Counted from the first letter of the stretch, positions 6,507 to 35,230 are shown. The stretch: 36,988 nucleotides of DNA from an uncultured Opitutia bacterium (GCA_913048125.1 CAJWWL010000003.1:1-36988); one strand, 5' to 3'. Numbers and translations are program-made. Notes: generated by a model not told the origin, from the letters alone.

Positions 6507-7970
6507 CTATTTTTTTTCTGTGCTGGTTTCCTCTTCGCTTTTAACTTTCGGGATCTTGAGCCAGAGCCAGGTTGTTTCGTTGATGAGATAGTCTCCCCGG
6601 CTTTCGCTAGTCTGGAATGATCGGGTAACGGTTTGCTCAAATGCCTTTTCATGGGTTTCCGATATATGGATTTGAAAAGGGTGGTTACCTTTGGGGGTAT
6701 CTTTGTGGATGGTGAGAGATACGGTTGCTTCCTTGGTGTCCTCGGCAATATCAAGGCCTTCTGCGCAGATTGGTTCAGGGAGTCCACTCAGCTTTACTTT
6801 GAGTGGTTGCTTGTGGCCGTTTTTTCGGTTAAGGTTAATCTTGATCTCCAACTTTTTTTCGAGTTTAGCCTCGTGGATGTCTTTTGCTATGGTGGGTTCG
6901 AAAGAAGGTTTTGGTTCATTTATTGAGAGCCTGTAATTGTAGTTTTCACCTGCGTTTCCATAGCGTTCTCGAATTTTGAGAGTGTACGGGGTGTCAGTCC
7001 CAGACTTTAGAAGATAACCTGCATCGGGGCTGTTGCGGTCTTCATCATCGACTTCTTTGATAAGCTTTTCGCCATTGTAAACTTCCAGAACAGTGTCGGT
7101 GGGAAATTGAAGTGAATGTGCTTCTACATGTATGTGGGCTGACGTTCCCTTTGATACTTTGACTTTGTAAGTGTCGGTTTCGTCTGGGAGTTTGAAGATT
7201 CCCGCGAGAGAACTTGGGACATTTAGAACTTTTGTAGGGGATAGTTCGGCATGCTCGGCGCTGGGTGGGGGAGAACTCGGCTTGCCGAGGCTCAGTTTTA
7301 GGCGATAGACCGAATTTTCGTCGCCTGCATATTGGATGCTTGTTGAGGCTTTTGATGTGACGGCAAGGACTTGTAAGGTATGCATTCCATTTTGGCGAGC
7401 GGTGTAGACGAGGTGTGGGTCTAGGTTGTGTGTGTCGCTGGCAACCGCTAATTCATACCCGCGAGGGTCAAGGATGTGGAGGAATGCATCGATAGGGGAA
7501 TATAGGCTATAGCCGTCGAGCTTTGCTGATAGAGTCTCTCCTTTTTTAAGATGAAACTGAAAGAAGTCGGTATCGCCTTTCTTCTGAAGACGGCCGTTGA
7601 TCAGGGCTGGAATTTTCTCAATTTTCTGCGCCTCAGCTAGGTGATTGTTTGGTTCGGATTCGAGAGTTTCCTCTTGCTGGGAAATGACAAATGTATGGGC
7701 GATAGAGATTCCTTTTTGTCCCAGAAGCCTAACAAGCACTGGCCCTGGTTGAGCATCCTTTGCAATTGTGATCTTCAATTGTCCGGATTTTTCAAGAGCT
7801 TCAATCGTGAGACCTTTGCGTGAAACCCAGAAATCTGGCGGCCAATCTTCGTGTTTCCCTGTAGCAAGAACCTCAATGGTGGTACCAGTTTGTCCACCTG
7901 GCGGGTGAAGTGCCGACGTCGCTGAAAGAAATGGAAGCAGGCTCGCGCCAAAGGTAAGGATTGCCCGCAT
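6507..7970 (-). CDS. Secreted PPC (pre-peptidase C-terminal)/Ig-like domain protein of DUF1501 module A
   Basis: Signal peptide; PPGGQTGTTIEV, ESEPNN, DTDFFQF, DETDTYKV, YRL repeats. No protease catalytic domain recognisable. Confidence 0.75.
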   Translation of the reverse strand: MRAILTFGASLLPFLSATSALHPPGGQTGTTIEVLATGKHEDWPPDFWVSRKGLTIEALEKSGQLKITIAKDAQPGPVLVRLLGQKGISIAHTFVISQQEETLESEPNNHLAEAQKIEKIPALINGRLQKKGDTDFFQFHLKKGETLSAKLDGYSLYSPIDAFLHILDPRGYELAVASDTHNLDPHLVYTARQNGMHTLQVLAVTSKASTSIQYAGDENSVYRLKLSLGKPSSPPPSAEHAELSPTKVLNVPSSLAGIFKLPDETDTYKVKVSKGTSAHIHVEAHSLQFPTDTVLEVYNGEKLIKEVDDEDRNSPDAGYLLKSGTDTPYTLKIRERYGNAGENYNYRLSINEPKPSFEPTIAKDIHEAKLEKKLEIKINLNRKNGHKQPLKVKLSGLPEPICAEGLDIAEDTKEATVSLTIHKDTPKGNHPFQIHISETHEKAFEQTVTRSFQTSESRGDYLINETTWLWLKIPKVKSEEETSTEKK

Positions 7971-7984
7971 CCTATACAGGTTAT

Positions 7985-9310
7985 TTAAGCAAAGAGCTCC
8001 TTGATCAGACGCCCGTTATCGATGAGCTGTACAGGGCGTCCAGCCGGCGTGTGCAGAATCTGGTTAGGGTCGATGCCCATCTTGGTGTACAGACTGGCTG
8101 CGAAGTCTTCCGGAGAATAGACGTTGTCGTTTGCATAGTATCCTTTGACATCGGTAGCACCAACAATCTGGCCACCAGGAATGCCAGCGCCAGCCATCAG
8201 TACGCTCATGGCAAAAGACCAGTGGTCACGTCCACCTCGGTCATTGATTTTTGGTGTGCGTCCAAATTCACCGAGGCATATCACTAGGGTGTTGTCTAGA
8301 GATCCCCGTTCATGGAGGTCCTCAATTAGGGCACTTAACCCTTGGTCGACTGGTGGGAGTGCTTTATCTTTAAGACTAGGAAATATGTTGGTGTGATGGT
8401 CCCAGCCACCACTGTAAACCGTAACGAAAGGTACTCCAACCTCAGTCATACGTCTTGCTAATAGAAGCCGTTGGCCGAAACCATTGCGACCATAACGTTC
8501 GCGAGTCTTTTCCGGTTCCCGGGAAATATCAAAAGCTTCCTGTGCTGGCTTCGAGTAGACAAGTTCGTAACTTTGGCGATAGAATTCATCGATGCTTACA
8601 GCAGGATCCGCTGCAACCTTGTCCTGAATGCGTTCCAGATTGTCCAGCGTGGCCCGCAGTTCTCGTCGATTTTCTGCTCGTGGGTCTGCGATGACATCAG
8701 GTATGCTGACGTCTCGCACTTTGAAGGAAGAGCTATTCGGATCGTTTGAAAGAACGAAGGGCGCATAGGGGGCTCCAAGAAAGTTTGGCCCGCCGGAACG
8801 AGACATTCGAGGCATCGAGACATAGCCGGGTAAGCCGTTGCGCAAGTTGCGTTCTTTGGAAACAACTGAGCCCAAAGAGGGGTGGAAAGTGACATGTGCG
8901 CCGCATCCCACAGGCACAGGAGTCGGGCGGCCAGTCATGAGGTAGTGATTGCCCGCGCCGTGATTGTTCTGTTTGTGGGCAATAGACCTAACGACAGTGT
9001 ATTTATCCAATGACTTTGCCAACTGGGGAACTAGTTCGCAGAAGTGAACACCCGGCACAGATGTCTTTACCGTACCAAATTCCCCACGAATCCCATCTGG
9101 GGCTTCGGGCTTTGGGTCGAAGGTTTCGTAGTGGCTTGGGCCACCGTCAAGCCACACTAAAATACAACGTGTGTCGTTAGCGGTTTTGCTTGGATTGCCT
9201 GAGGCCTCTGCACGAAGATTCAGCAACTGTGGGAGAGTCAATCCACCGAGGGAGGAGAGGCCCACTTGAAGGAAGTCACGCCTTGTAGTGCCGTTGCAAT
9301 TACTGTGCAT
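7985..9310 (-). CDS. DUF1501 family protein (Tat-exported), copy A
   Basis: Twin-arginine signal TTRRDFL; LDGGPSHYETFDPKP, GWDHH, GEFGRTPKIN, GRDHW. Confidence 0.9.
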   Translation of the reverse strand: MHSNCNGTTRRDFLQVGLSSLGGLTLPQLLNLRAEASGNPSKTANDTRCILVWLDGGPSHYETFDPKPEAPDGIRGEFGTVKTSVPGVHFCELVPQLAKSLDKYTVVRSIAHKQNNHGAGNHYLMTGRPTPVPVGCGAHVTFHPSLGSVVSKERNLRNGLPGYVSMPRMSRSGGPNFLGAPYAPFVLSNDPNSSSFKVRDVSIPDVIADPRAENRRELRATLDNLERIQDKVAADPAVSIDEFYRQSYELVYSKPAQEAFDISREPEKTRERYGRNGFGQRLLLARRMTEVGVPFVTVYSGGWDHHTNIFPSLKDKALPPVDQGLSALIEDLHERGSLDNTLVICLGEFGRTPKINDRGGRDHWSFAMSVLMAGAGIPGGQIVGATDVKGYYANDNVYSPEDFAASLYTKMGIDPNQILHTPAGRPVQLIDNGRLIKELFA

Positions 9311-9370
9311 GGATTTATCTTACTATCCTAAGAATATTCGAAGCGAGACTTTTTACGACATCATTATCCT

Positions 9371-12300
9371 TCAATGATTAAGCATGAACTCGGCGGTATT
9401 TAGGAGCGCCCAAATCAGATCTTCTGTAGCTGTTTGGCGTGTGGCGTCCTTTGAGGCGAAGGATGCAATGGCTGCTTCCTGTTCCTTCTCAGTAGGCAGA
9501 CGAGAGAAGGCTGCGAGATATATCTCCTCAACAATATGTTCGGTTGAAAGGTCGCTCTTGGCTAGTTTTGTCGCCCGACTGGCACCAAGGGCAATACGGT
9601 CTATGAGTTTACTGGAGTTGGCGAGGTGGAGTGCTTGCGTGATGGTTGGAGCGGGGTCGCGCTCACAGGGACACTCCGCGCTAGAGTCGGGCCTTCCAAA
9701 GGTATCGAGGAAAACAGAGGGCATGGTGGTGTTCCAGACGTGCATGGCACGAGAGCGAGCAGGAAGACCTTGGAAGTCGGCAGCAATGTCTGTGACGGAA
9801 GTGACCGCATCGGCCATGACCTCGGCGCGCAGTCTGCGACGTAAGGATCGGCTGAAGTTTCTGTGGTCGCCTGAATTGGTTGCATTGGGTAAGCTTGAGC
9901 TCTGGTATGTCCGGGAATGCAGGATGCGACGCATGAGATGCTTAAGGTCATATCCGTTTTCTACAAAATCTTTGGCAAGCCAGTCCAGAAGGAGAGCGTT
10001 GCTAGGTGGGTTCGATTCCCTAAAGTCGTCTACAGGTTCTACAATTCCAATACCAAAGTAAGCCGCCCAGATACGATTCACTATTGCTTTGGCGAAGTAG
10101 GGGTTGTCTTTTTCTAGCATCCACTCAACGAGTGCGGTTCTAGGGTCTTTGGAGTCTGCTATGGTGAGTGTATGGCCGCCCGGTGGTGTAGGCTTCATTA
10201 CGGCGTCAGTGACTGGGTGTTTGACTGTGCCGCCTGGTTGGAACCACCAGTACTCGGGTTCGCCGGAGATGGGCGCGGATATTCCTTGCCCTTTTCGCTT
10301 CATGGATCCGAAGAATGCTGCAAGTTGATAGTAGTCGTCTTGTCCCCACTTCTCGCTGGGGTGGTGGTGGCATTGAGCACATTCAAGGCGGACACCCAGA
10401 AATATTCGGCTGGCAAATGCCCCTGCTGTGTGGGGTTCACGCTTGTCGCGGAAAAAAGCCACAGGGCCATACTTATGAGAACTTCCTGTTGCAGTGAGTA
10501 GTTCACTGACAAAGGTATCCCAAGGCGTATTTTCACGTAGTTTCCGTCTTACCCAGCGGTCAAGAAGATAGACGGGTTTCACCCCAACGCGCTGAGTGTT
10601 TGGACGAAGTAGGTCGTTGAAGCGTGTCGCCCAGTAGTCGGCCCAGTCGGGATTATTGAGGAGTTTTTCAATGTAGTGCTTACGCTTGTCTACGGAGGTG
10701 TCCTTGAGGAATTTGCGGGCGGTCTCGGGATGGGGGAGTCGACCGATGGTATCCAGGGTGGCGCGGCGTAAGAACTCACTGTCTGAACACTTGTCAGATA
10801 TCAGAAGCCCTAGTTGTTTGTGTCTGTCATAGTTGTGTCGATCGATTGGATTGCTGATGAGCAAGTTCTCGTAGGATGCTGGTGGAAGGTTTGTCTCGCT
10901 GGGAATGGCGACTCTAGCCACTTCTACAGCATCCATGTATCGGACGATAAGTGCGCTTTCGCCTGATTGGTTACCTAGTGTGGCATGGCCGTTTTCATCG
11001 ATTGAAGCGATGCCTAGATCATTGCTCTGGTAGTGGGCAAGGTGCGTCACATCGCGAGTTGACCCGTCGGAATAGTGAGCCTTTGCATTCAGGCTGACCT
11101 TAGCTCCTTTCAAATATGTGCCTTCCTTGGGGGAGACTGATAGACGTTCAAGTTTGGGCTCGTCTTTCTGACCGTAGGGCGTTCCTTGGGCAATCCAGTC
11201 GTGAATAATTTGGTAGAATTCAGAATCCGGCTTGATACGTTGGCCTCCTTCATGACTGATGCTCTCTGTTGCCTTTCGGAGCAGTAGACTCTGCGCTGGT
11301 GCATCGGGCATAGTGCGGCGACCGCGACCTGCAAACGCTAAGGCATGATGGTCAGTCTTGGGATCATAGGAGAAGATAGAAAGCTGAAAGCCATTTTGGC
11401 CTCCGGATTTGGCGTGGCAACTACCGTCGGCACAGCCAGCTCGCGTTAGGATTGGGAGGATGTCATTTCGGAAGCTTAGTGTATTGGCTTTTTTGATCGG
11501 CTCCTTGATTGCATTATCTTTGGGCACTTGTGGCTGCCAGTTTTTTCCAGAGGAGTCTAGGAAGTGAAGCTGACCATCACCATCGGTCATCAAGATGCGT
11601 TTGTATTCAGATGACCAAGCTATGGCGTCATATCCATACTTGCCGACCGAAGACCATGCCCTTTCTTTGGCGCCAGTGGAGGTTTGTTTGCCCTCATGGT
11701 TTACGAGTGAAGTGTAGAGGCGAGGTGTGTTGTCATCTGATATCGTGACGATCCAGTCATCAGTTTGCTCGGGCTTTTCCTTGTTGGGGTCTAGGGTCCA
11801 GACTATTCCAGTAGCATCGGCCTTTGCATTCCGAGCAGAAAAAGTGATGTCTTCATTGAGAGTTTTGGGGTTCCATATCTTCACCGATCGGTCGGCGCTG
11901 GTTGTGGCGATTCGCTGGCTATCTGGACTGAAGGTGGCTGCCAGTACATAGCCAGTATGTCCTTCCAAGTTGCCAACTGGTTGTAGTGTGTCGGCGTTCC
12001 AAAGTCGGGTCAATTTATCGGCGCTTGAGCTTGCGAGGAGTTTTCCGTCAGCACTGGCGGTAAGAGCAAAAATGGAGTCGGTGTGGGCTCTTATGCTTTT
12101 TACATGGGTCCAACCAAGGGGGCGTATAATGTGGAGTTGTCCAAGTTGGGTGGGTAGGCTATCTGCGATGATGAGTCGTTGTCCTTCATTCAAGAAGGTC
12201 AAGGCTGTGATACTACCGGTGAGTTTATCCTCGATTGTAGTTTCGATTTGTCCTGTCTCAATATTCCAAATGTTGACCTTGCGGAAGCTTCCTCCTGCGA

Positions 12301-12862
12301 GAACTTTGCCATCTGGGCTCCATGCCAGTGAATGGATGGGTCCTTGATCGGTGATAAACTGGTGTATCGGGGTGATCCCTTTTTCCTCGATCCTTCGGAT
12401 ATCTACGGTTCTGCCTCTGGATACAGCAAAGGTCTTGCCATCCTGCGCCATGGCAAGGGCGTGGGATGGTTGGTGGAAGGGTGAAGGTTGGTCCCAATCA
12501 ATAGGATTGAGATCGGGCACGGCTTTAAGGATGGCGGCGTCCCATTTGAGTCCTTTAGCTATCCATTGGCTAAGGCTGGATATGTCTGTTTTCGAAAGTT
12601 GCTTCTTGGGAGGCATGTGTGGGTCTGCATCTTTTTGGAGAAGCTTAATGAGGAGACTTTCTTCCGGTTTTTCCAAATTTATGGCTTTGCCGGTTTCGCC
12701 ACCTTTTAGAATTCCTTGGCGCGTGGAGAGTAGAAGTCCCCCCTTACGTTTTTCTTCCGAGTGACAACTTATGCAGTTGTCTCGAATGATAGCGAGGGGT
12801 TCTGCCACCATGGCTTGAGCGAATAGGCTGCCTAGTATCCAGAATTTGCCTAATCGATTCAT
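9371..12862 (-). CDS. Fusion: planctomycete cytochrome c + WD40 propeller + Ig-like + DUF1549/DUF1553 (PSCyt2/PSD1)
   Basis: Signal peptide; CISCH...MPPK; WD repeats (HTDSIFAL, GHTGYVLAATFSPD); CADGSCH; FLRRATLDTIGRLP; CAQCHHHP; NPYFAKAIVNRIW; NPPSN; C-terminal WALLNTAEFMLNH. Confidence 0.88.
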   Translation of the reverse strand: MNRLGKFWILGSLFAQAMVAEPLAIIRDNCISCHSEEKRKGGLLLSTRQGILKGGETGKAINLEKPEESLLIKLLQKDADPHMPPKKQLSKTDISSLSQWIAKGLKWDAAILKAVPDLNPIDWDQPSPFHQPSHALAMAQDGKTFAVSRGRTVDIRRIEEKGITPIHQFITDQGPIHSLAWSPDGKVLAGGSFRKVNIWNIETGQIETTIEDKLTGSITALTFLNEGQRLIIADSLPTQLGQLHIIRPLGWTHVKSIRAHTDSIFALTASADGKLLASSSADKLTRLWNADTLQPVGNLEGHTGYVLAATFSPDSQRIATTSADRSVKIWNPKTLNEDITFSARNAKADATGIVWTLDPNKEKPEQTDDWIVTISDDNTPRLYTSLVNHEGKQTSTGAKERAWSSVGKYGYDAIAWSSEYKRILMTDGDGQLHFLDSSGKNWQPQVPKDNAIKEPIKKANTLSFRNDILPILTRAGCADGSCHAKSGGQNGFQLSIFSYDPKTDHHALAFAGRGRRTMPDAPAQSLLLRKATESISHEGGQRIKPDSEFYQIIHDWIAQGTPYGQKDEPKLERLSVSPKEGTYLKGAKVSLNAKAHYSDGSTRDVTHLAHYQSNDLGIASIDENGHATLGNQSGESALIVRYMDAVEVARVAIPSETNLPPASYENLLISNPIDRHNYDRHKQLGLLISDKCSDSEFLRRATLDTIGRLPHPETARKFLKDTSVDKRKHYIEKLLNNPDWADYWATRFNDLLRPNTQRVGVKPVYLLDRWVRRKLRENTPWDTFVSELLTATGSSHKYGPVAFFRDKREPHTAGAFASRIFLGVRLECAQCHHHPSEKWGQDDYYQLAAFFGSMKRKGQGISAPISGEPEYWWFQPGGTVKHPVTDAVMKPTPPGGHTLTIADSKDPRTALVEWMLEKDNPYFAKAIVNRIWAAYFGIGIVEPVDDFRESNPPSNALLLDWLAKDFVENGYDLKHLMRRILHSRTYQSSSLPNATNSGDHRNFSRSLRRRLRAEVMADAVTSVTDIAADFQGLPARSRAMHVWNTTMPSVFLDTFGRPDSSAECPCERDPAPTITQALHLANSSKLIDRIALGASRATKLAKSDLSTEHIVEEIYLAAFSRLPTEKEQEAAIASFASKDATRQTATEDLIWALLNTAEFMLNH

Positions 12863-12905
12863 ATCAATCTTTAACGTATCGCTTTTAAATAGAGCCCGAA
12901 AAACT

Positions 12906-13889
12906 TTAACGAACCAAGTTGACTACGTTTTGAGGTGTGCCTTTCAGAAAAGCCTTAACATTTGCTACGACGGTATTCATTAAGCGGGTTCGAGCCGCCT
13001 GCGTAGCCCATGCGATGTGGGGAGTGATGATACAATTTGGGATTCCGATCAGTGGATTGTCATTAGTGGCAGGTTCGATACTTAGCACGTCTAATCCCGC
13101 ACCAGCAATTTGACCAGTTTTCAAGGCCTTAGCTAGAGCGCCTTCTTCGATAAGTGGTCCGCGGCTGGTGTTAATCAGGAAGGCAGTTGTTTTCATCATT
13201 GCGAGTGCCTCAGCGTTGATGAATTTCTCATTTTTTGCAGTAAGCGGGCAGTGAAGGCTAACGAAGTCGCTTTCCTCGAGAATTTTATTGATTGAGGCTG
13301 TGGAGATACCCTCTTCCAGTTCGCCACGCCCTTCTAGGGATGGACTGTAGACCAGTAGTTTCATGCCGAAACTTCTAGCGATGCGGCCAACCTGTTTTCC
13401 GATGCTACCGTAGCCAATGATGCCTAGTGTTCGCCCTTCCAGTTCGATCAGCGGGTAGTCCCAGAAGCAAAAGTCTGGGCATTCATTCCATCGCTGGTTA
13501 TCGACGGCTGTTCCGTGATGGGCGACACGTTGGGTGAGGTTTAAAATGTGCGCAAACGTCATCTGTGCGACTGACGCAGAACCGTAGTCCGGCACGTTTG
13601 TGACCGCTATGTTCTTCTCTGATGCCGCCTCGACATTCACGATATTGAAGCCAGTTGCTGTGACGCCAATATATTCAAGGGCATCTAGTTTGGCGATTGA
13701 TTCACGGGAGAGGGGTGCTTTGTTGGTGAGGACAATTTTGGCTCCCTGAGCACGCTCAATTACTTCTTTGGGTGAAGAGCGTTCGTAAACCTCGCAGGTG
13801 CCAAGGGTTTCAAGTTCTCCCCAGTTTAGGTCTCCGGGGTTAAGGGTGTATCCATCGAGGACTACGATTTTTATTTTATCAGTTGGCAT
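12906..13889 (-). CDS. D-2-hydroxyacid dehydrogenase (glycerate dehydrogenase/hydroxypyruvate reductase-like)
   Basis: LDGYTLNPGDL N-terminus, GIIGYGSIG, SLHCPL, INTSRG, LDVLSIEP, TPHIAWA. Overlaps the enolase-like gene by 11 nt. Confidence 0.9.
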   Translation of the reverse strand: MPTDKIKIVVLDGYTLNPGDLNWGELETLGTCEVYERSSPKEVIERAQGAKIVLTNKAPLSRESIAKLDALEYIGVTATGFNIVNVEAASEKNIAVTNVPDYGSASVAQMTFAHILNLTQRVAHHGTAVDNQRWNECPDFCFWDYPLIELEGRTLGIIGYGSIGKQVGRIARSFGMKLLVYSPSLEGRGELEEGISTASINKILEESDFVSLHCPLTAKNEKFINAEALAMMKTTAFLINTSRGPLIEEGALAKALKTGQIAGAGLDVLSIEPATNDNPLIGIPNCIITPHIAWATQAARTRLMNTVVANVKAFLKGTPQNVVNLVR

Positions 13890-15297: not shown

Positions 15298-15396
15298 AGC
15301 GAAGGATTTCTAGTTTTCTAGTTTTGTTTGTTAGGTCAAACTGAGAGTTGGTCTGCACTTTACAACTCATAGAGGATAACGAGGATACACCAACAG

Positions 15397-16434: not shown

Positions 16435-16528
16435 AAAAACTGTCAGAAAAAAATAACCTTTACCTATATATAGTGAACGCATTGCACGAGCGCGCGAGGA
16501 ACTAGCAAATTTTCACAAAAGCAAACAG

Positions 16529-17869: not shown

Positions 17870-17948
17870 GACACCGGATGTTCCGGAATTACAAGCTTTG
17901 GAGTCCACAAGACTTTTTGGCCGTTAAACCCTTAGCTACTAAGCCACA

Positions 17949-20447
17949 ATGACTCGCTTGCTACCGAATCTGCTTCTCTTTTTATTTAGCGTAACCGCCA
18001 GCCTTGATGCGGCTTCTCCTATCCTTTCTCGTATCCTACCGAGAGGTGGTCAGCAGGGGAGTACGGTTGAGATGGTCTTTACCGGTCAGCGGCTAAATGA
18101 TATCCACCAAGTACTTTTCTACACCCCCGGGTTTTCGGTTGAAAAGGTAGTTGGGGACGAGAAGAACGCCAACCGAGCAACCGCAACTGTAACGATTGCT
18201 CCAGACTGTAAGCTTGGTGAGCACAAGTTGCGTATTGTCACACGAACTGGCTTGAGTACTCTCAGCACTTTCTGGGTTGGGCCCTATGAAACGGTTTTGG
18301 AGGTTGAGCCCAATAGCGACTTTTCAAGTCCTCAGGTCATTGCAATAAATCGTACTGTTGAAGGGCGAGTAGACAATGAAGACGTGGATTACTATGCCGT
18401 TGAAGCAAAGAAAGGTCAGCGATTGAGCGTAGAGGTTGAAGGTATTCGCCTAGGAGGTCAGAATAACGTTATCTTTGATCCTTACGTTGCCATTTTAAAC
18501 AGCAAACGCTTCGAGCAGGCTGCTGCCGATGATACGCCTCTGCTCTTACAGGACTGCTTTGTCTCAATTGTTGTTCCAGAGGACGGCACCTACTGGGTAG
18601 AAGTTCGCGATAGCTCCTACGCTGGGAACGCCAACAGCAGATATCGTCTCCATATTGGTAACTTTCCTCGTCCTCAGGTTGTCTTTCCTGCTGGTGGTAA
18701 AGCAGGTACTGAACTGGAGGTCAGCTTTCTTGGAGACAAGGCAGGCTTGCCGAAAAAGAAGATTCAACTGCCTGCAAAATCAGATCCGGCCTTCGCTCTT
18801 CTAGCCGAAGCAGACGGTCAACGTTCGCCTTCTGCCAACCGCTTTCGTGTTAGCGACTTCGCCGATGTCCTAGAAGTTGAGCCCAATGAAAATCGCACCA
18901 AGGTTCCCGTTCCAGACGTTACTCCGCCCATGGCCTTTAACGGAATCATACAGGACGAGGAAGATATTGATTACTTCACCTTCATGGGGAAGAAGGGCCA
19001 GCGCCTAACATTTACCGCTCATGCACGTTCTCTACGCTCTCCTCTTGATCCTGTCCTGAACGTCTACTTTGGCGAGGGCAAAGAGTTCAAGAATCTGAAG
19101 GGAAGCGATGATGTTGGCCGTAACCCTGACAGTAAATTTGATCTAACTCTGCCCGCCGACGGAAAATACTACGTCCGCATCACAGATCATCTTCGCAAAG
19201 GCGGTCCTGATTACATCTACCGCATAGAAGCCGAAGCCATGCGCCCAGAGCTCAAGACATTCCTTCCACGCTATGGCAACAACGATACCCAGTCTCGTCA
19301 GATGATTCCGGTGGCTCGAGGCAATCGTTATGCTAATGTTATTCAGGTGACCCGTCGCAACATTCGCGCTGAACTAGATTACATCGCTCATAATTTGCCT
19401 GCAGGGATTACGATGCATGCAGCACGTCTTCCAGCTAGCATCGATAGATTCCCTGTCGTATTTGAGGCTGCCCCGGATGCTCCTCTCGGCGGTTCGCTTG
19501 TGGACCTCAAGGTACGACAGGTTCTCACCGAAGAAGAGGCTAAACAGGCCAATCGAACTCCGGCAGAAGGGGGCTATGGACATAGTTTCACTCTCGTCCG
19601 TGGTCCTAACAACACAGACATGTACATGACCACGGTTGACCGTTTAGCTGTTTCTGTAACCGAAGAGGTTCCTTTCCATATAGAAATCGATAAGCCTGCC
19701 ACCCCTATCCTTCAAAGGGGTTCCATGAACCTAAAGGTTCGAGCTATCCGAAAGGAGGGTTTCGATGATCCAATAGTTTTGCGAATGCTTTGGAATCCAC
19801 CGGGCATCGGTTCCCGAGGAACGGTTACCATCCCTAAGGGCAAGAGCGAAGCGAATTATGGCTTAACCGCTAACGGTGGTGCCACTGTTGGGACATGGAA
19901 GATTGCTATTCTTGGCGAGGCCGCTGCGCCAGGCGGACAAGTCTTTGCCTCCTCTCGGTTGACTGATCTTGTCATCGAAGAGCCGTATCTAAACATGACC
20001 ATCGAGATGGCCGCCATCGAGCGCGGAAAAGAAGGAGAGGTATACTGCAAGATTGAAACACTTCGTGAATTTGAAGGTGAGGCAGATATACGACTCGTGG
20101 CCCTTCCAGCACTGACCAGTACTGTTCCTCTCAAAATCAATAAGGACACCAAAGAAATTTCCTTTCCCGTTAAGACTGAAATCAAGGCTCGTGCTGCCAC
20201 CACGAAAAACCTTTTCATTTCCGCCAGCATTCCGGTGGCCGGACACAATCTCAGCCAGACAGTTGCTAGTGGTGGGCAAATCCGCATCGATAACCCACCA
20301 CCACCTCCGAAAAATCCCACAACAAAGCCTAAAGCATCACCAAAGCCAGCCAAAGTTGTAGCAAAAGCACCGGCTGAAAAACCGAAAAAGCCCCTCAGTC
20401 GCTTAGAAAAGCTTCGTCTAATTGCCAAGGAACGTGCCGGGAATTGA
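17949..20447 (+). CDS. Secreted multi-PPC/Ig-like domain protein of DUF1501 module B, with Pro/Lys-rich C-terminal tail
   Basis: Signal peptide; PRGGQQGSTVE, two EVEPN repeats, DVDYY/DIDYF, YRL/YRI. Paralog of 6507..7970. Confidence 0.8.
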   Translation: MTRLLPNLLLFLFSVTASLDAASPILSRILPRGGQQGSTVEMVFTGQRLNDIHQVLFYTPGFSVEKVVGDEKNANRATATVTIAPDCKLGEHKLRIVTRTGLSTLSTFWVGPYETVLEVEPNSDFSSPQVIAINRTVEGRVDNEDVDYYAVEAKKGQRLSVEVEGIRLGGQNNVIFDPYVAILNSKRFEQAAADDTPLLLQDCFVSIVVPEDGTYWVEVRDSSYAGNANSRYRLHIGNFPRPQVVFPAGGKAGTELEVSFLGDKAGLPKKKIQLPAKSDPAFALLAEADGQRSPSANRFRVSDFADVLEVEPNENRTKVPVPDVTPPMAFNGIIQDEEDIDYFTFMGKKGQRLTFTAHARSLRSPLDPVLNVYFGEGKEFKNLKGSDDVGRNPDSKFDLTLPADGKYYVRITDHLRKGGPDYIYRIEAEAMRPELKTFLPRYGNNDTQSRQMIPVARGNRYANVIQVTRRNIRAELDYIAHNLPAGITMHAARLPASIDRFPVVFEAAPDAPLGGSLVDLKVRQVLTEEEAKQANRTPAEGGYGHSFTLVRGPNNTDMYMTTVDRLAVSVTEEVPFHIEIDKPATPILQRGSMNLKVRAIRKEGFDDPIVLRMLWNPPGIGSRGTVTIPKGKSEANYGLTANGGATVGTWKIAILGEAAAPGGQVFASSRLTDLVIEEPYLNMTIEMAAIERGKEGEVYCKIETLREFEGEADIRLVALPALTSTVPLKINKDTKEISFPVKTEIKARAATTKNLFISASIPVAGHNLSQTVASGGQIRIDNPPPPPKNPTTKPKASPKPAKVVAKAPAEKPKKPLSRLEKLRLIAKERAGN

Positions 20448-20466
20448 ACGCAAGACACCAAATTTG

Positions 20467-23400
20467 ATGAGACAAATTACAAAATTCCTTTCCTTCATTT
20501 TCATTCTTGGGTGGTCCCACTGGTGCTTTTCTGAGGATGCTCCAAAACCTTCTCAGATTAACCAGTCTGAGCAGAAAGATTCCCCTGAACCAGCTAAGCC
20601 TATCGAGGCAGTGAGACCGACTGAGTCTGCTACAGCACTACAGACTAAACCCAGTCCCACTGAGCCGAAACCAACCGATACAAAGCCTGCTGAGGTCGAG
20701 AAGCCTGAAACTCCTGCTATCGCCAAACCTGTTGCTGCTGCTCCTGTTGCTCCAGACTTTCATTCTGATATTCGTCCAATTCTTGAAGTGGCATGTGTCC
20801 AATGCCACGGTGCCGAGAAACAAAAGGGAGACTTACGGCTCGACCAACTTGTTCACGCGACCAAGGGCGGAGACGGTGGTCCTGCAATCGTTGCCAAGGA
20901 TATCGTAAATAGCCTTCTCATCGAGCGTATCGAATTGCCAGCTGACGATGACGAAATTATGCCACCTAAGGGTGATCCACTCAGTCCTGAACAGGTCAAG
21001 CTTCTAAAAGACTGGATTATTGCTGGTGCGCCTTGGCCTACTGAAGTGGCGCTTCGACAAAAGACCCTCGAAGATCTTGCCCGTGAACGACGTTTCGCAG
21101 CAAAGCAGATCGTTGACGTAAAGGTGTACCCACCTGAAGTCAGCTTGGAGACATCTTCTGACCATCATACCCTCGTGGTCATGGCAACATACGCAGACGA
21201 GAGTACTCGTGATGTAACTCACGACTCCAAATTTGTAATATCGGATTCATCTATCGCCAAACTTGAAGGTCAAACTCTTCTTCCTGCAAAGGATGGTAAT
21301 ACAAGTCTCCGCATTAGTTTTGCTGATCACAATGTCGATGTACCCGTCAACGTGAAGGAGTCGTCTACGCCTCGTCCAAATAGTTTTCGCCTGGATGTGA
21401 TGCCAGTTCTCATGCGCGCTCAATGTAACAATGGTTCATGCCACGGTTCGGCTCGCGGACAGGACGGTTTCATGCTTTCTCTCTTTGGTTATGATCCAGA
21501 AGGGGATCATCATCGGATCACCAGAGAGGAGTCTACTCGCCGCATTAACCTTGCTCTGCCACACGAGAGTATGCTCCTTGAAAAGGCTATTGAGGCGGTC
21601 CCCCACACAGGTGGTAAGCTTTTCGAGAAGGACAGCCAGTATTACAACGCGATTCTTGCTTGGCTTAAAGGCGGTGCTAAGAACGACCCCGCAGATATCG
21701 CCCAACCCACCAGTATTGAAATCCTTCCCTCTAAACTCCTCCTCGAAGGTGCTGGAGCGACTCAACAGATGACCGTTACTGCCCACTATTCTGACGGGAC
21801 TGACCGGGATGTAACTTCATTGGTTATCTTTCAAAGTAACAACGATAACAGCGCGACTATCAGCGAGGATGGTCTTGTCACTGCTCACAAGCCAGGTGAA
21901 GCCTTCATAATGGCTCGCTTTGCCACCTTTACAGTCGGTAGTCAGGCAATAGTTATCCCAGCAGGACTAAAGTACAAACGTCCAGAAGTCGCAGAAACCA
22001 ACTACGTGGACAAGCTTGTTAACGAGAAGCTCCATAAATTACGCATCATACCCTCTGGTAAGTGTACAGACGAATCCTTCATTCGTCGTGCCTCACTAGA
22101 TATCATCGGAAAGCTCCCTACACTTGAAGAGCAGGAATCTTTCCGAACCAGCGCTGATCCTAAGAAGCGTCAAAAGCTAATCGACAATCTTTTGGACCGC
22201 AAAGAGTTCACTGAGATGTGGGTTATGAAGTTCGCCGAACTTCTGCAAATCCGCACCCAGCAGAACAATCAGGTCAGTTACAAGGCCACACTTCTTTACC
22301 ACAACTGGCTCAAGGAACGTATTGCTGCCAACGTACCTATAAATAAAATCGTTCAGGAAATTCTCTCCTCGACTGGAGGCACGTTTAAGACCCCTGCCAC
22401 CAACTACTATCAGATCGAGCGTGATACCCTCAAGGTCGCCGAGAATGCTGCACAGGTTTTCATGGGCATGCGTATTCAATGCGCACAGTGCCACAATCAC
22501 CCTTTTGATCGCTGGACAATGGATGATTATTACTCCTTTGCTGCTTTCTTTTCCCAGATTGGTCGCAAGAACGCAGAAGATCCAAGGGAGGTCATCGTTT
22601 ACAATCGTCGATCTGGAGACATGAAGCACATGGTCGATGGTCGTGTTATGGAGCCAAAGTTTCTTGGTGGCGCTGTTCCTGAAATACCCCGAAGTGCCGA
22701 CCGTCGTGCTATTCTCGCTGAGTGGCTTGCTTCAGAGCAGAACCCTTACTTTGCTTCCAACTTGGCAAATATCGTCTGGCAACACTTCTTTGGAGTCGGG
22801 ATCATTGAGCCTGTTGACGATGTTCGTATCAGCAATCCAGCCTCGAACCCTGAACTGCTCGAAACCCTTGCCGGAAAGTTCACCGAGTACAATTATGACT
22901 TCAAACGACTTGTCCGCGATATCTGTAACTCCCAGACCTACCAGCGTACCACTCGCACCAATGAGAGTAACGAATCCGATACTCGCAACTTCTCGCATGG
23001 TAATCTCCGCAGACTTCGTGCAGAAGTCCTGCTTGATGTTATAACGCAGGTCACTCAGACGAAAAATAAGTTCCGAGGTCTACCACTTGGAGCTCGCGCA
23101 GTGCAGATCGCAGATGGCAACGTCAGCAATTACTTCCTCACGACTTTTGGCCGTGCCACTCGTGAAACAGTTTGTTCTTGCGAAGTCAAAATGGAACCCA
23201 GTCTATCTCAGGCGCTCCATTTACTTAATGGCGATGTTACTCATAATCGAATTCGTAGTGGTGGACTCGTAAATCAGCTCGTCAACCAAGAGAAGAAGCC
23301 TCCCTCTGAAACGCTAGAATTCCTTTACCGTCGCACCCTTTGTCGTCCCCCGACCAAAGAAGAGGCTGCGCCCATATTAGCTGTTGTTGAGAAGGAGGAA

Positions 23401-23472
23401 GACAAACGCGCTATTTTTGAGGATGTCTTCTGGGCACTACTGAACTCTAAGGAGTTTATTTTCAACCACTAG
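20467..23472 (+). CDS. Planctomycete cytochrome c + two Ig-like domains + DUF1549/DUF1553 protein
   Basis: Start moved to ATG 20467, which is followed by a signal peptide. Pro/Thr/Glu/Lys linker; CVQCHG...MPPKG; two ATY/AHYSDG..RDVT Ig domains; CNNGSCHG; CAQCHNHP; WALLNSKEFIFNH. Confidence 0.88.
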   Translation: MRQITKFLSFIFILGWSHWCFSEDAPKPSQINQSEQKDSPEPAKPIEAVRPTESATALQTKPSPTEPKPTDTKPAEVEKPETPAIAKPVAAAPVAPDFHSDIRPILEVACVQCHGAEKQKGDLRLDQLVHATKGGDGGPAIVAKDIVNSLLIERIELPADDDEIMPPKGDPLSPEQVKLLKDWIIAGAPWPTEVALRQKTLEDLARERRFAAKQIVDVKVYPPEVSLETSSDHHTLVVMATYADESTRDVTHDSKFVISDSSIAKLEGQTLLPAKDGNTSLRISFADHNVDVPVNVKESSTPRPNSFRLDVMPVLMRAQCNNGSCHGSARGQDGFMLSLFGYDPEGDHHRITREESTRRINLALPHESMLLEKAIEAVPHTGGKLFEKDSQYYNAILAWLKGGAKNDPADIAQPTSIEILPSKLLLEGAGATQQMTVTAHYSDGTDRDVTSLVIFQSNNDNSATISEDGLVTAHKPGEAFIMARFATFTVGSQAIVIPAGLKYKRPEVAETNYVDKLVNEKLHKLRIIPSGKCTDESFIRRASLDIIGKLPTLEEQESFRTSADPKKRQKLIDNLLDRKEFTEMWVMKFAELLQIRTQQNNQVSYKATLLYHNWLKERIAANVPINKIVQEILSSTGGTFKTPATNYYQIERDTLKVAENAAQVFMGMRIQCAQCHNHPFDRWTMDDYYSFAAFFSQIGRKNAEDPREVIVYNRRSGDMKHMVDGRVMEPKFLGGAVPEIPRSADRRAILAEWLASEQNPYFASNLANIVWQHFFGVGIIEPVDDVRISNPASNPELLETLAGKFTEYNYDFKRLVRDICNSQTYQRTTRTNESNESDTRNFSHGNLRRLRAEVLLDVITQVTQTKNKFRGLPLGARAVQIADGNVSNYFLTTFGRATRETVCSCEVKMEPSLSQALHLLNGDVTHNRIRSGGLVNQLVNQEKKPPSETLEFLYRRTLCRPPTKEEAAPILAVVEKEEDKRAIFEDVFWALLNSKEFIFNH

Positions 23473-23474
23473 AT

Positions 23475-26411
23475 ATGCCTGATTTTTCGATGAGACTCGC
23501 TATGAAACTACATTCAACCGCTATTTTTCTTGCAGCTCTGCTAGCACAAAGCCCTCTCGCTATAGCTGAGTCTGCCACGAAAATCACATGGGACGATCAT
23601 ATCTTCGCACTCATGGAGGGTGCCTGCATTTCCTGCCATAACCCCGATAAGACCAAGGGCGGTCTCGACCTTAGTTCTTACAATAATCTCCTCAAGGGAG
23701 GCAGTAGCGGCGAGAGCGTGACTGCTGGCGATCCAGAATCCAGTCTCCTCTACAAGGTGACTGCCCATCTCGAAGAGCCATTTATGCCACAGAACAAGGA
23801 TAGGCTTCCTGACGCGCAAATTGCTCTGCTTAAGAGCTGGATTTCTGGCGGTCTCCTTGAAACTGCAAGTAGTAAGGCTAAGAAGGCAAAAAGCTCTGGT
23901 TTCAATCTTGCGCTAAAGGTGACTAACTCTGGGAAGCCAGAGGGGCCACCGCCCATGCCTGAGCATCTTCCGCTGCAACCTCATGTTTTGAGTGAACGCC
24001 CCGCTGCCGTATCAGCACTAGCTACCAGCCCTTGGGCACCACTGGCCGCTGTTGCTGGTCAAAAGCAGGCATTACTTTACAACACTGATACTTTTGAACC
24101 TGTAGCCATTCTACCTTACGAAGAGGGGTTCATTGAATCCCTAAAGTTCAGTCCAAATGGTGCCTTGCTTGTAGCGGGTGGAGGACGTGGAGGCAAGGTG
24201 GGCCGCGTAATAGCTTGGGATGTAAAGACTGGTCAGCAAGTCCTCAAAGTTGGGCAAGAGTACGACACTGTTCTATCTGCTGACATAACGGCTGACCAAG
24301 CTACTGTTGCCATTGGTAGTCCAAGCAAGCGTATCAAACTTCATGATACAGCCGACGGAGAACTTCTTCACAACATCAAGAAACACTCCGAGTGGGTTAC
24401 TTCCGTATCCTTCTCTCCTGATGGAGTTTTACTGGCAACTGGCGACCGTAATGGAGGTGTTCACGTTTGGGAAGCCTTCTCAGGGAACCTCTTTTACACC
24501 CTCGAAGGAAATAAAGGCGCGATCACTAGCATCACTTGGCGATCCGACTCAAATATTGTGGCTACTGCTTCTGCAGATGGTTCAGTGCGTCTCTTTGCCA
24601 TGACTAACGGTCGCCAAGTCCGGAACTGGACGGCTCATGGAGGAGGGGTACTTTCTTTGCACTTTGCACGTAACGGTCAGCTTGTTTCCTCCGGTCGTGA
24701 CAAACAAGTTAAAGTTTGGGCACAGGACGGCAAACAGATCAAAGCCTTAGGTGGCTTTACTGACCTTCCTCTGGAAGTTGCCTTCACGCAGGATGCCAAG
24801 CGTGTCATTGTAGGCGATTGGCTAGGATCTGTGACCGTCTGGGATATTGAAACGGCCAAACAGGTCGCTACCTTATCCGCTAATCCCCCATCTCTAAACA
24901 ATCGTCTCGCTGCCGCCCAGCAACAGGTTGTCGCTGCTGATGCCGCGGAGAAGAAGGCAAAGTCAGTCCTCGATGCCGCCAAGGCTGTTACTGCACAGCT
25001 TGCGAAGCAGTTGACAGATGCCAGATCAGCGCTTGCTGCACGTACCACTGAAAAGCAACAAGCTGACACTGCACTGGCTGCTTCTAAGCAACAGCAGTCC
25101 GCTGCTACCTCTGCACGAACTGCGGCGAGCAACAATTTGAAGACGCAGCAGGACAAACTTAGCCAAATAAATGCCGTGCTCAAAACAGAGTCTGATAAGC
25201 TGACTGCAAACAAAGCCAATCTTTCAACGTGGAAGGCGCAAGTTACTGCGCGTACTAGTCAGTCTGAGTCCCTCAAAACTGCGGCAGATAATGCAAATGC
25301 CGAGTCTGCCAAAATTCCAGAGGATGCTGCTCTCAAGGATGCTGCCTCTAAGGCGGTTGCTGCATGGCAGGCCATGGATAAAGCCCTTTCTGAAGCGCGT
25401 TCCAAAGAGAATACTGCAGCAACCAATGTTCAGAACTCTGAATTTCAAGTCACTACCGCGCGAAAGCAGTCTGAAACACAGGCAAGTGCCGTCAAGGCTG
25501 GGCAAAACGACCTTGCTACAAAAGACCAAGCCTTAAAGGTAGCTACCGCAAAGGTGACTGCAGATGCCAAGGCTAGTGCTGAAAAGGTGGCGCAACTGAA
25601 GGTCGCACAAGACGCTGTTTCTAAATCCGAGGCTGCTCATAAGGCGCAGGTCGAAAAGGAAAAGGCTCCAGCACAGGCTCACTCGACTTCCGTTGCAAAA
25701 TTAGCCGCTGCCCAAAAGAAGGTTGCTAAGTGGAAGGCTGAGCAACTCAACGTAAACCGACACCTTGAAATTGCTTCATTGAATAACCTAGATTCCGAAC
25801 TTGTTGTTCTGAAAAGTGCTTCTGCAGACACTAAAGCCACCTTTGAGAAGGCTGAAGCAGACCTCTTAGCTGTACAGAATCAACTCACTGAAGCGCCTAC
25901 ACGCATCAAAGAAGCTGAAGTCTCTCTTTCTGGTCGTAAGTCTACGGTAACTGCTGAAGCTCAGAAGTTAGGTACACTCAATGAGGATGTGTCTAGACGG
26001 GAAGCATTTCTCAAAAAAGCCGATGCTTTTGGCTCTGAAATCGACTCCATTCAGTCGAAGGAACCCCAGAACGCAGAGTTGGCGGATGCCTCCAAAAATT
26101 TCAAAGAACAGGTTCGCAGCAAGTTTCAATCAGATCTTGATAATGCAAAGGGCAGAGTTGCTGCACAGCAGCAAGTGCTTGCCCAAGCTAACGAAGCCGT
26201 AGTTGCAGCAGAGAGACATCTAGTGGAAATGAAAACCCTTCCTGAAAAGTTGCCAGCAATCATAGCTGAGCGTACCAAAATTCGAGACTTAGCAAAGTCT
26301 GCCTATGAAAGTGCTCAGGCTTCTGAAATCCAATTTACTCAGAAGGTTGATGCGCAACGTAAGAAGGTTGACGGCTTAACCGGTCAGTATTTAGCCCTTC
26401 TGCCCAAGTAA
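23475..26411 (+). CDS. Planctomycete cytochrome c + WD40 propeller + long Ala/Lys/Gln-rich coiled-coil protein
   Basis: Signal peptide (start may be 23490 or 23502); CISCH...MPQ; WD40 repeats (HSEWVTSVSFSPDG, AHGGGVLSL); about 500-aa helical C-terminal region. Confidence 0.85.
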   Translation: MPDFSMRLAMKLHSTAIFLAALLAQSPLAIAESATKITWDDHIFALMEGACISCHNPDKTKGGLDLSSYNNLLKGGSSGESVTAGDPESSLLYKVTAHLEEPFMPQNKDRLPDAQIALLKSWISGGLLETASSKAKKAKSSGFNLALKVTNSGKPEGPPPMPEHLPLQPHVLSERPAAVSALATSPWAPLAAVAGQKQALLYNTDTFEPVAILPYEEGFIESLKFSPNGALLVAGGGRGGKVGRVIAWDVKTGQQVLKVGQEYDTVLSADITADQATVAIGSPSKRIKLHDTADGELLHNIKKHSEWVTSVSFSPDGVLLATGDRNGGVHVWEAFSGNLFYTLEGNKGAITSITWRSDSNIVATASADGSVRLFAMTNGRQVRNWTAHGGGVLSLHFARNGQLVSSGRDKQVKVWAQDGKQIKALGGFTDLPLEVAFTQDAKRVIVGDWLGSVTVWDIETAKQVATLSANPPSLNNRLAAAQQQVVAADAAEKKAKSVLDAAKAVTAQLAKQLTDARSALAARTTEKQQADTALAASKQQQSAATSARTAASNNLKTQQDKLSQINAVLKTESDKLTANKANLSTWKAQVTARTSQSESLKTAADNANAESAKIPEDAALKDAASKAVAAWQAMDKALSEARSKENTAATNVQNSEFQVTTARKQSETQASAVKAGQNDLATKDQALKVATAKVTADAKASAEKVAQLKVAQDAVSKSEAAHKAQVEKEKAPAQAHSTSVAKLAAAQKKVAKWKAEQLNVNRHLEIASLNNLDSELVVLKSASADTKATFEKAEADLLAVQNQLTEAPTRIKEAEVSLSGRKSTVTAEAQKLGTLNEDVSRREAFLKKADAFGSEIDSIQSKEPQNAELADASKNFKEQVRSKFQSDLDNAKGRVAAQQQVLAQANEAVVAAERHLVEMKTLPEKLPAIIAERTKIRDLAKSAYESAQASEIQFTQKVDAQRKKVDGLTGQYLALLPK

Positions 26412-30229: not shown

Positions 30230-30230
30230 C

Positions 30231-30983: not shown

Positions 30984-30995
30984 ATTTTTTTGAAT

Positions 30996-35035: not shown

Positions 35036-35230
35036 TCTCGGTGAAAAATCTCTTCTCTTGAGCACATAATCTACTCCGAGAATTAAGGACTTCAATTATT
35101 AGGTGATGGGGGTGCATTAAAAACGGCTTTCGCAATCTCAACAGGCACTTGCCGAAGTAGAGATTGTTGCATGACTCGTCTTCTGAATCATCTGGTGTCG
35201 ATTGCTCCATAACTCAAAATAGTAAGCAAT

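Follow-up and report, generated by a model that had tools for sequence, protein, structure and literature searches.

The 36,988-nucleotide (nt) stretch of DNA analyzed here, hereafter the window, is contig C3 of the 3.6-Mb, 407-contig genome of an uncultured Opitutia bacterium (GCA_913048125.1, CAJWWL010000003.1:1-36988), and it carries two operons, modules A and B, that are assembled from the same protein parts. These are a DUF1501 protein, a protein with PPC domains, a protein with PSCyt2 (DUF1549) and PSD1 (DUF1553) domains, and a PSCyt1-WD40 unit, which is fused to the PSD1 protein in module A (the fusion protein) and is encoded in module B by a separate gene, B4, beside that of the PSD1 protein, B3 (Table 1). 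The reading we favor, to which we give a probability of about 0.55, is that each operon builds an exported, periplasmic multi-protein enzyme with a DUF1501-PSD1 heterodimer as its core, accessory layers around it and the PPC protein as a third component. The open reading frames (ORFs) of both modules lie exactly where a first-pass annotation of the window had placed them. Pfam searches and part-by-part homology also upheld the gene orders, the domain lists and the fused versus separate state of the cytochrome c-WD40 part from which that annotation had argued for a periplasmic complex.

The core heterodimer is a prediction from structural modeling of module A. The PSCyt2-PSD1 unit (residues 660-1163 of the fusion protein) was modeled by AlphaFold2 as one compact, mostly helical body, with a predicted local distance difference test (pLDDT) of 91.0 and a predicted template-modeling score (pTM) of 0.91. 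Complex prediction was carried out for one pair, this unit with residues 40-441 of the module A DUF1501 protein, the two being neighbors across the whole family, using a separate alignment for each partner. The interaction prediction scores from aligned errors (ipSAE) were 0.82, 0.78 and 0.81 (median 0.81), and the best of three controls scored 0.00. Among solved complexes, 116 of 157 attained the mark for this score, as did 2 of 215 mismatched pairs; these counts serve as rough guides here since custom alignments were used. At least 81% of the contacts were common to the runs and the partner pLDDT was at least 86. A score owed to a memorized structure is unlikely because DUF1501 has no solved relative by sequence.

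The predicted interface joins residues 287-504 of the PSD1 unit (946-1163 of the fusion protein) to residues 132-251 of the DUF1501 protein. Its closest contacts are made by the last three PSD1 helices, which hold invariant E468, W492 and E499 and the C-terminal H504. Columns conserved in at least 90% of sequences were enriched on the PSD1 side of the interface (14/54 vs 53/450 elsewhere; odds ratio 2.6, p 0.009). The modeling therefore predicts that the DUF1501 and PSCyt2-PSD1 parts of module A form a heterodimer, and it is for this one pair that the earlier proposal of a periplasmic complex gained support. Solved relatives of the PSCyt2-PSD1 unit were sought by sequence, which returned matches to immunoglobulin-like (Ig) domains only, and with Foldseek, which returned none at an expectation value (E) of 0.001 or below (best E 0.44). 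A phycobilisome linker domain, found by a wide VIA-align comparison (Z 5.6, 107 aligned residues, root-mean-square deviation 4.4), was rejected as a relative; similar rows had Z of 4-5, and such values are at the noise level for helical proteins.

The partner of this helical body has a different and more familiar predicted shape. The model of the module A DUF1501 protein (pLDDT 74.7, pTM 0.77) dropped below a pLDDT of 50 at residues 170-176, 198-208 and 222-240, segments that fall in the predicted interface range. Foldseek found 169 matches to it in the PDB at E of 0.001 or below (top E 6.4e-07, probability 1.0), the top ones being carbohydrate sulfatases (S1), sulfamidase, LtaS and phosphonate monoester hydrolase, with template-modeling scores of 0.35-0.41 and about 12% identity. 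The formylglycine motif [CS].[PA].R was matched in neither DUF1501 protein of the window, and there was no match to the Pfam Sulfatase family; membership of the S1 sulfatases was rejected because this motif is missing. DUF1501 is thus predicted to have a sulfatase/alkaline-phosphatase fold that lacks the formylglycine motif. An alignment with the paralogues of its own genome, in which the N-terminal columns were ignored as they are cut by domain envelopes, showed D65, K67, H117, D304, H306, E348, R351, R361 and H363 to be invariant, and position 63 to be always T or S. Based on fold and conservation, the invariant residues would form a metal site and T/S63 may be the nucleophile. The earlier description of DUF1501 as a metallo-subunit agrees with the fold and the invariant Asp and His residues; the metal itself we infer. 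Among the 120 database matches listed for the module B DUF1501 protein, identities were 74-99%.

Pairing of DUF1501 with PSCyt2-PSD1 proteins is systematic in this genome. There are 55 DUF1501 matches above the Pfam cut-off among 60 at E of 0.001 or below, and phmmer identified 57 DUF1501 ORFs. A PSCyt2/PSD1 partner lies within 300 nt on the same strand for 37 of these 57, and within 6 kb for four more; of those with no partner, 11 are 1.5 kb or less from a contig end and 5 are not. Proteins of the PPC kind number three in the genome; two belong to modules A and B, and the third, on contig C34, has no adjoining DUF1501 gene. Modules A and B are the genome's only DUF1501 plus PPC modules. A quick tree of 46 DUF1501 paralogues grouped the DUF1501 proteins of modules A and B with those of contigs C231 and C149, with a Shimodaira-Hasegawa-like approximate likelihood-ratio test (SH-aLRT) value of only 86.

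Modules A and B are, on the evidence of their sequences, anciently diverged paralogous operons that are homologous part by part. The DUF1501 proteins share 42% identity over 437 residues, residues 463-1163 of the fusion protein and 321-1016 of B3 share 36% over 712 (E 2e-154), and residues 23-330 of the fusion protein and 44-374 of B4 share 28% over 343 (E 2e-23). The PPC proteins share 26% over 422 residues (E 2e-24), in a comparison that also makes an internal repeat of the module B protein visible. A recent duplication was ruled out because the parts are only 26-42% identical and B3 fell outside all 74 A-type rows of the tree described below. The adjacency of the two modules is not conserved in the closest relative (locus L057), which has a module A but, over 8 kb in both directions, no further DUF1501 or PPC gene.

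A second line of evidence concerns the PSCyt1-WD40 unit. The fusion protein has 2092 database relatives at E of 1e-10 or below. Among the 120 matches listed, 119 carry PSCyt1, WD40, PSCyt2 and PSD1, and 118 of these have 88-100% query coverage, 42-99% identity and lengths of 1106-1260 amino acids (aa); the other two listed are of 958 and 744 aa. A search with the complete fusion protein over 200 genomes sampled from the phylum, in which three candidates were scored per genome, gave no other full-length match. This blank reflects the limit of that search, because a pattern scan of genome contigs with an alignment of 28 fused proteins later found 41 fused genes among 80 related loci in other Verrucomicrobiota. 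In 17 of the 80 loci the gene was split, with a PSCyt1-WD40 ORF directly upstream of a cytochrome-like-PSCyt2-PSD1 ORF on the same strand; upstream sequence was missing from five loci, and five more were not long enough to be classified. At the split junctions the gap was -4 nt in six loci, -8 nt in two, and in the remaining ones 11, 13, 24, -67, -79 (twice), 302, 315 and -541 nt; the first eight are short overlaps that suggest coupled genes. Among loci with at least 3 kb of downstream sequence, DUF1501 and then PPC came next in 24 of the 35 fused ones and in 9 of the 14 split ones.

A quick IQ-TREE phylogeny (76 rows, LG+G4) was built from the C-terminal part common to the fused and split forms, with B3 and the contig C34 protein as the root. 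It needs at least five switches between the two forms, and in it the window's protein groups with an Opitutia and two Puniceicoccaceae metagenome genomes. Since fusion or fission has recurred at one junction with gene order kept, the PSCyt1-WD40 unit appears to work with the PSD1 protein. This is good evidence of a functional tie, which is a different matter from proof that the separate forms bind. The gene-fusion (Rosetta-stone) argument of the first-pass annotation had compared modules A and B, old paralogues with differing gene orders; the related loci make it stronger.

Both DUF1501 proteins have twin-arginine translocation (Tat) motifs (TRRDFL at residue 9 in module A, SRREFL at residue 21 in module B), and by inspection the other five module proteins have hydrophobic N-terminal segments (maximum 12-residue hydropathy 1.8-2.4) of the kind recognized by the general secretory (Sec) pathway, in agreement with the export signals previously noted. 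Based on these observations we propose a working model. The core heterodimer would comprise a Tat-exported DUF1501 protein as a hydrolase subunit of the sulfatase/alkaline-phosphatase fold, probably metal-dependent and free of the formylglycine motif, whose variable cap region (132-251) would dock on the C-terminal part (287-504) of a Sec-exported PSCyt2-PSD1 protein, chiefly on the conserved helices at its C-terminus. The extension at the N-terminus of the PSD1 protein would carry the accessories, namely a class-I-like c-type PSCyt1 domain, a degenerate C-x4-CH domain and Ig domains, and the WD40 propeller would be a fused accessory in module A and a separate subunit in module B. These accessory modules, together with the CxxCH inside PSCyt2, may feed or sense electrons and hold a substrate or partner, and the PPC protein would be the third, beta-rich component of this subfamily. 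As for the substrate, a modified (sulfated, phosphorylated or oxidized) glycan fragment is a guess from the fold and genomic context; each module follows one or two cytoplasmic sugar- or acid-metabolism genes.

A broader and distinctly tentative extension is that DUF1501-PSD1 might be an obligate heterodimer and the catalytic core of a very large class of periplasmic enzymes in Verrucomicrobia and Planctomycetes, which in the PPC subfamily would be wired to up to four c-type hemes and a WD40 propeller. If true, a formylglycine-free sulfatase-fold subunit would be completed by a helical partner with no solved relative, in a hydrolase-cytochrome machine with no characterized counterpart and possibly on an oxygen-linked alternative route for processing modified glycans.

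Several findings weigh against the enzyme as proposed. Relatives of the module A PPC protein were identified in 53 of 201 sampled genomes of the phylum (28 of 104 genera), and a set of 20 PPC-anchored loci from 20 genomes was surveyed with hidden Markov models from own-genome paralogues and Pfam spot checks. PSCyt2-PSD1, DUF1501 and PPC occurred together in 17 of the 20. In 15, however, the arrangement was a minimal PSCyt2-PSD1 protein (459-646 aa) followed by DUF1501 and PPC, the module A order with no PSCyt1 or WD40 part; two had the four-gene form of module B, and one each had DUF1501 with PPC, PSCyt2-PSD1 with PPC, and PPC alone. The redox layer and propeller are therefore not needed by the core. 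An alignment of 51 PSCyt2-PSD1 units showed the same for the heme-type motif of PSCyt2: its CAxCHxHP loop is kept in the two proteins of the window and in all relatives of the fused or four-gene type, whereas none of 16 minimal proteins from the PPC-linked modules of other genomes has CxxCH anywhere, the loop being a gap in 15 and reading CAECKEHP in the sixteenth. The heme-type parts and the propeller are thus superimposed on a core of three parts, the PSD1 body, DUF1501 and PPC. The core exists without heme motifs, and so the "obligate redox assembly" of the first-pass annotation is too strong a description of the module.

The support for a complex is itself a prediction for one pair of one module, and the DUF1501 side of the predicted interface was depleted of columns conserved in at least 90% of sequences (3/50 vs 71/352; odds ratio 0.25, p 0.018), which could mean paralogue-specific pairing or, equally, less reliable placement. 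A WD40 ORF was not directly upstream in 12 of the 80 module-A-related loci, and some split calls may be frameshift errors of metagenome assemblies (gaps -541, -79, -67, 302 and 315). Neither DUF1501 nor PPC followed in 10 of the 35 fused loci with at least 3 kb downstream, and one more had DUF1501 alone. The guess at a substrate is weak because the flanking genes differ between the window and the closest relative, where they encode a gluconolactonase, a GFO/IDH/MocA oxidoreductase, a 3-keto-disaccharide hydrolase, a sulfatase and a DUF7133-type protein. Finally, a literature search found no function, enzyme activity, metal or heme reported for any module member.

Some of these counts would also be expected if the genes were functionally linked, by a pathway or shared regulation, with products that form no stable assembly and fusions that reflect co-expression only. 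Gene neighborhood and the fusion of adjacent genes are also seen for consecutive pathway enzymes. The fused genes with no DUF1501 or PPC downstream, the loci with no upstream WD40 ORF and the PPC-anchored modules with no WD40 or cytochrome part are all in keeping with such a loose linkage, and by the method's own description 7 of 44 blindly picked neighbor pairs passed the same complex test. Nevertheless, we consider this explanation unlikely in view of the margin of the module A pair over its controls, the contacts shared between runs, the use by the predicted interface of the most conserved C-terminal PSD1 motif, and the pairing of 37 of the 57 DUF1501 ORFs in the genome.

Two further observations were made at related loci. 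A cytoplasmic protein of about 365 aa is encoded beside the heme-free three-gene module in 9 of the 20 PPC-anchored loci (about 3.4 kb away in L051); its C-terminal domain is of the RidA/L-PSP type, it weakly resembles the chorismatase Hyg5 (PDB 5ag3, E 5e-4), and no homologue was found in the window's own genome. In addition, a 707-aa protein of locus L105, encoded downstream of a PSCyt2-PSD1 and DUF1501 gene pair, has in one chain an Ig+PPC unit (residues ~91-255), which matches the PPC protein of module B at E 8e-12, together with PSCyt1 and a WD40 propeller. As a single case it is possibly a second fusion, tying the PPC part to the WD40 unit.

The heme-type motifs of the accessory layer are CISCH at 30, CADGSCH at 477 and CAQCH at 828 in the fusion protein, CVQCH at 125, CNNGSCH at 335 and CAQCH at 687 in B3, and CISCH at 51 in B4. 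The second motif of the fusion protein and of B3 marks a further domain of about 110 residues, additional to those in the first-pass annotation, in which C-x4-CH replaces CxxCH. It lies after the propeller (fusion protein) or the first Ig domain (B3) and before the Big_2 domain; it had no Pfam match even at E of 10 or below, and in the fusion protein it resembles the PSCyt1 domain of B3 (local BLAST E 2e-06). All 28 aligned fused proteins (43-79% identity) have invariant C30/C33/H34 with H82/M83 (PHMPP), C477/C482/H483 with H537, and C828/C831/H832-H834. The PSCyt1 domain of B3 reaches the gathering score of Cytochrome_CBB3 (27.3 vs 27 bits), and genes for cytochrome c maturation of the CcsA and ResB types (system II) are present on contigs C28 and C75. 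The PSCyt1 domains accordingly show the features of class-I-like c-type cytochromes, which are CxxCH with a distal Met/His, Sec-like N-termini and maturation genes in the genome. Because the motifs and plausible distal ligands are invariant in the fused family and the genome has a system II set, heme binding by the window's own proteins is likely.

The same motifs might instead be structural or metal (Zn/Fe) sites in hydrolase systems that are not redox-active, with N-terminal domains that serve for binding only. The minimal proteins are consistent with this, as 15 of them have lost the loop and kept the rest of the domain and the DUF1501 partner, and the PSCyt2 motif is in a helical body unlike known cytochromes and in a lower-confidence loop of the model (pLDDT block ~66). 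We regard this view as quite improbable for the window's proteins, given the Cytochrome_CBB3 score, the invariant CxxCH with its His-Met pair, the Sec-type N-termini of all proteins that carry the motifs and the heme-attachment system of the genome.

The C-x4-CH domain was found in six ORFs of the genome, and a beta-propeller is encoded at all six loci: a fused WD40 in module A and on contig C294, a separate WD40 in module B and on contig C231, PD40 on C149 and PQQ_2 on C34. The contig C294 locus (L004) has a second fused PSCyt1-WD40-cytochrome-like-PSCyt2 gene of 1025 aa, which has no PSD1 part and stops 223 nt short of the end of the contig; truncation, a frameshift or a genuine short form could each account for it. 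The contig C34 locus (L003), which has no DUF1501 gene, encodes a CCG/4Fe-4S protein, a PQQ_2 propeller and a Big_2-cytochrome-like-PSCyt2-PSD1 protein, together with the 927-aa relative of the PPC protein, which has no Pfam match, and then an FGGY sugar kinase.

Table 1. Genes and parts of modules A and B, neighboring genes, and features of related loci. Positions with no locus name are those of the window.
Feature	Coordinates	Strand	Remarks
Module A, gene 1 (fusion protein)	9371-12862	minus	1163 aa; PSCyt1 (aa 30-86)-WD40-type propeller (aa ~144-440)-second cytochrome-like domain-Ig-PSCyt2/DUF1549 (aa 672-855)-PSD1/DUF1553 (aa 908-1131)
Fusion protein, PSCyt1 and WD40 part (aa 30-86, ~144-440)	11543-12775	minus	separate gene in module B
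Fusion protein, cytochrome-like domain with no Pfam model (aa ~463-570)	11153-11476	minus	C-x4-CH
Fusion protein, PSCyt2-PSD1 unit (aa 660-1163)	9374-10885	minus	compact, mostly helical predicted body
Module A, gene 2 (DUF1501)	7985-9310	minus	441 aa; Pfam DUF1501 E 4e-108
Module A, gene 3 (PPC)	6507-7970	minus	487 aa; Pfam PPC aa 133-201, E 5.8e-08; Sec-like N-terminus
Module B, gene 1 (DUF1501)	16529-17869	plus	446 aa; Pfam DUF1501 E 5e-117
Module B, gene 2 (PPC)	17949-20447	plus	832 aa; Pfam PPC, two stretches, E 8.7e-14
Module B PPC protein, Pro/Lys-rich tail	20190-20447	plus	
Module B, gene 3 (B3)	20422-23472	plus	1016 aa from TTG start; PSCyt1 (125-184)-Ig-like HL_N-beta (267-311)-cytochrome-like-Big_2 (430-497)-PSCyt2 (529-713)-PSD1 (761-987)
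B3, low-complexity stretch	20422-20760	plus	~70 residues, Pro/Glu/Lys/Ala-rich
Module B, gene 4 (B4)	23475-26411	plus	978 aa; PSCyt1 51-105, WD40 ~178-510; begins 2 nt past B3
D-2-hydroxyacid dehydrogenase	12906-13889	minus	Pfam 2-Hacid_dh_C, 2-Hacid_dh; 43-nt gap to fusion gene
Enolase-superfamily protein	13879-15297	minus	Pfam MR_MLE_C; upstream of module A
NAD-dependent epimerase/dehydratase-like protein	15397-16434	plus	Pfam Epimerase E 2.6e-09; ends 94 nt before module B DUF1501
DUF7133 protein	3796-6384	minus	862 aa; 122 nt downstream of module A PPC gene
ABC transporter and ThiF-family genes	26501-32153	plus	89 nt past module B
Two S1 sulfatase genes	33635-36826	plus	Pfam Sulfatase and SGSH_C
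DUF7133 protein of closest relative	L057:16847-19423	plus	downstream of module A
Second fused gene, contig C294	L004:224-3301	minus	1025 aa
DUF1501-less locus, contig C34	L003:4311-12771	plus	
RidA/L-PSP protein of ~365 aa, examples	L037:8233-9333	minus	five more loci besides the four listed
	L042:11173-12291	plus	
	L047:5103-6197	plus	
	L054:8774-9967	plus	
Ig+PPC-PSCyt1-WD40 protein	L105:15027-17150	minus	707 aa

Module A extends over 6507-12862 on the minus strand and module B over 16529-26411 on the plus strand, and the two point away from each other. In module A, 60 nt separate the fusion gene from that of DUF1501, and 14 nt separate the latter from the PPC gene. The WD40 family (PF00400, cut-off 27 bits) scored 81.4 bits in the fusion protein and 109.4 bits in B4. 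The module B PPC protein has two Ig+PPC units, further beta-rich parts and the tail listed in Table 1, and its neighbors in the ESM Atlas, from Verrucomicrobiota and Planctomycetota, are PPC clusters about 810-830 aa long. For B3 an ATG at 20467, which is followed by a hydrophobic segment, is a more likely start than the TTG. The low-complexity stretch of B3, which stands between its signal-like segment and PSCyt1, and the tail of the PPC protein in module B may act as tethers or flexible linkers. B4 ends in an Ala/Lys/Gln-rich tail of 459 aa (Ala 20%, Pro+Gly 3%). This tail, earlier labeled a coiled coil, is present as described and is probably helical, as judged from its composition and a sub-threshold SMC match at 460-723. 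NCBIfam had no family for six of the seven module proteins and sub-threshold matches only for B4.

Among the other genes of the window, the exported-looking protein downstream of module A has DUF7133, HEAT, cytochrome c and F5/8 type C domains, and the same protein type is found downstream of module A in the closest relative. Beyond module B is an ABC transporter set with an SBP_bac_11 binding protein of 514 aa that appears to be doubled, a permease and an ATPase of 217 aa, then two ThiF-family genes, one with a rhodanese domain (MoeB-like); these genes may be an oxyanion uptake and sulfur-transfer cluster. The two sulfatase genes near the end of the window are canonical members of S1.

Modules of this type are already in print. 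Kamneva et al. (2012, Genome Biol Evol 4:1375; PMC3542564) described a four-gene cluster as the "most complex" around DUF1501 in Verrucomicrobia and Planctomycetes. Its members are a DUF1501 protein that in some cases carries a twin-arginine signal, a signal-peptide-bearing protein with one or more weak PPC domains, and two proteins of the types PSCyt1/Big_2/PSCyt2/PSD1 and PSCyt1/WD40. Module B has all four adjacent on one strand in that paper's listing order, and B3 scores above the Pfam cut-offs for PSCyt1, Big_2, PSCyt2 and PSD1. Module A has the same parts in the order PSD1 protein, DUF1501, PPC, and is a variant rather than the four-gene form because its PSCyt1-WD40 unit is fused to the PSD1 protein; this fused form may already stand among the locus architectures of figure S14 of that paper. 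The domains had been called functionally uncharacterized in the first-pass annotation, which holds for their function in the literature and less so for the module, which had been published. The interface, the fold and the fusion/fission analysis are given here and lie outside that paper's account of the cluster.

The same paper connected the cluster with membrane-targeted electron transport tied to the intracellular membranes or cell plan of Planctomycetes-Verrucomicrobia-Chlamydiae (PVC) bacteria, citing for the four-gene cluster a correlation of 0.852 with such membranes, and noting cytochrome motifs and signal peptides. We find this very improbable for modules A and B. The genome has 57 DUF1501 ORFs in its 3.6 Mb, the accessory domains of the family vary widely and some relatives have no heme motif, which suits a diversified enzyme family better than a cell-plan machine. 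By inspection, the seven proteins have no transmembrane part beyond their N-terminal signals. An enzyme family is also more in keeping with the report of He et al. (2017, mSphere; PMC5615132), in its account of freshwater Verrucomicrobia, that sulfatase genes are often near PSCyt genes and that there is an inverse correlation with glycoside-hydrolase gene density.

In the systems of He et al. the PSCyt proteins have inserted Big_2, WD40 and F5_F8_type_C domains, and PSCyt2 genes, present in many copies per genome, adjoin a gene family of unknown function. The window resembles them in its PSCyt1/PSCyt2/PSD1 proteins with inserted interaction domains, and it too holds S1 sulfatases; complex formation, treated here, is outside the scope of that account. 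The DUF1800-DUF1501 gene pairs of Proteobacteria (Goncalves et al. 2016, BMC Evol Biol; PMC5122149) are similar in that a DUF1501 gene with a Tat signal adjoins that of a protein of unknown function in one operon, and they differ from modules A and B in that the description of the pairs includes no cytochrome, WD40 or PPC parts. PSD1-type proteins gave sub-threshold matches to DUF1800 (PF08811, cut-off 26.1 bits; 12.4 bits, E 0.086 in L040 and 21.7 bits, E 1.1e-4 on contig C231), and two database relatives of the fusion protein among the matches listed have precomputed PF08811 matches. No true DUF1800 was found in the window's own genome, and all DUF1800 matches scored in this analysis fell below the family cut-off. 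In comparison with the S1 sulfatases and the alkaline-phosphatase superfamily, DUF1501 shares the fold and, putatively, Asp and His residues at typical metal-site positions. It differs from the S1 enzymes in its low identity, the missing formylglycine motif, Tat export and a helical partner that is predicted to be obligate.

The DUF1501 system fills a sizeable share of many Verrucomicrobia and Planctomycetes genomes, and most of the 57 DUF1501 ORFs here have a PSD1 partner. The present findings do not define a new kind of system but make a question that has stood since the cluster was published in 2012 easier to test. They supply a specific predicted interface with named residues, a cytochrome/WD40 layer that is separable from the core, and the assignment of the WD40-cytochrome unit to the PSD1 protein. 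One related locus (L074) comes from Prosthecobacter fluviatilis, a cultured carrier in which pull-downs, heme and metal analysis and activity screens are practical. The window therefore contains two forms of a published module type, to which the predicted heterodimer, the fusion/fission counts, the predicted DUF1501 fold and the heme-free minimal forms are the new additions.

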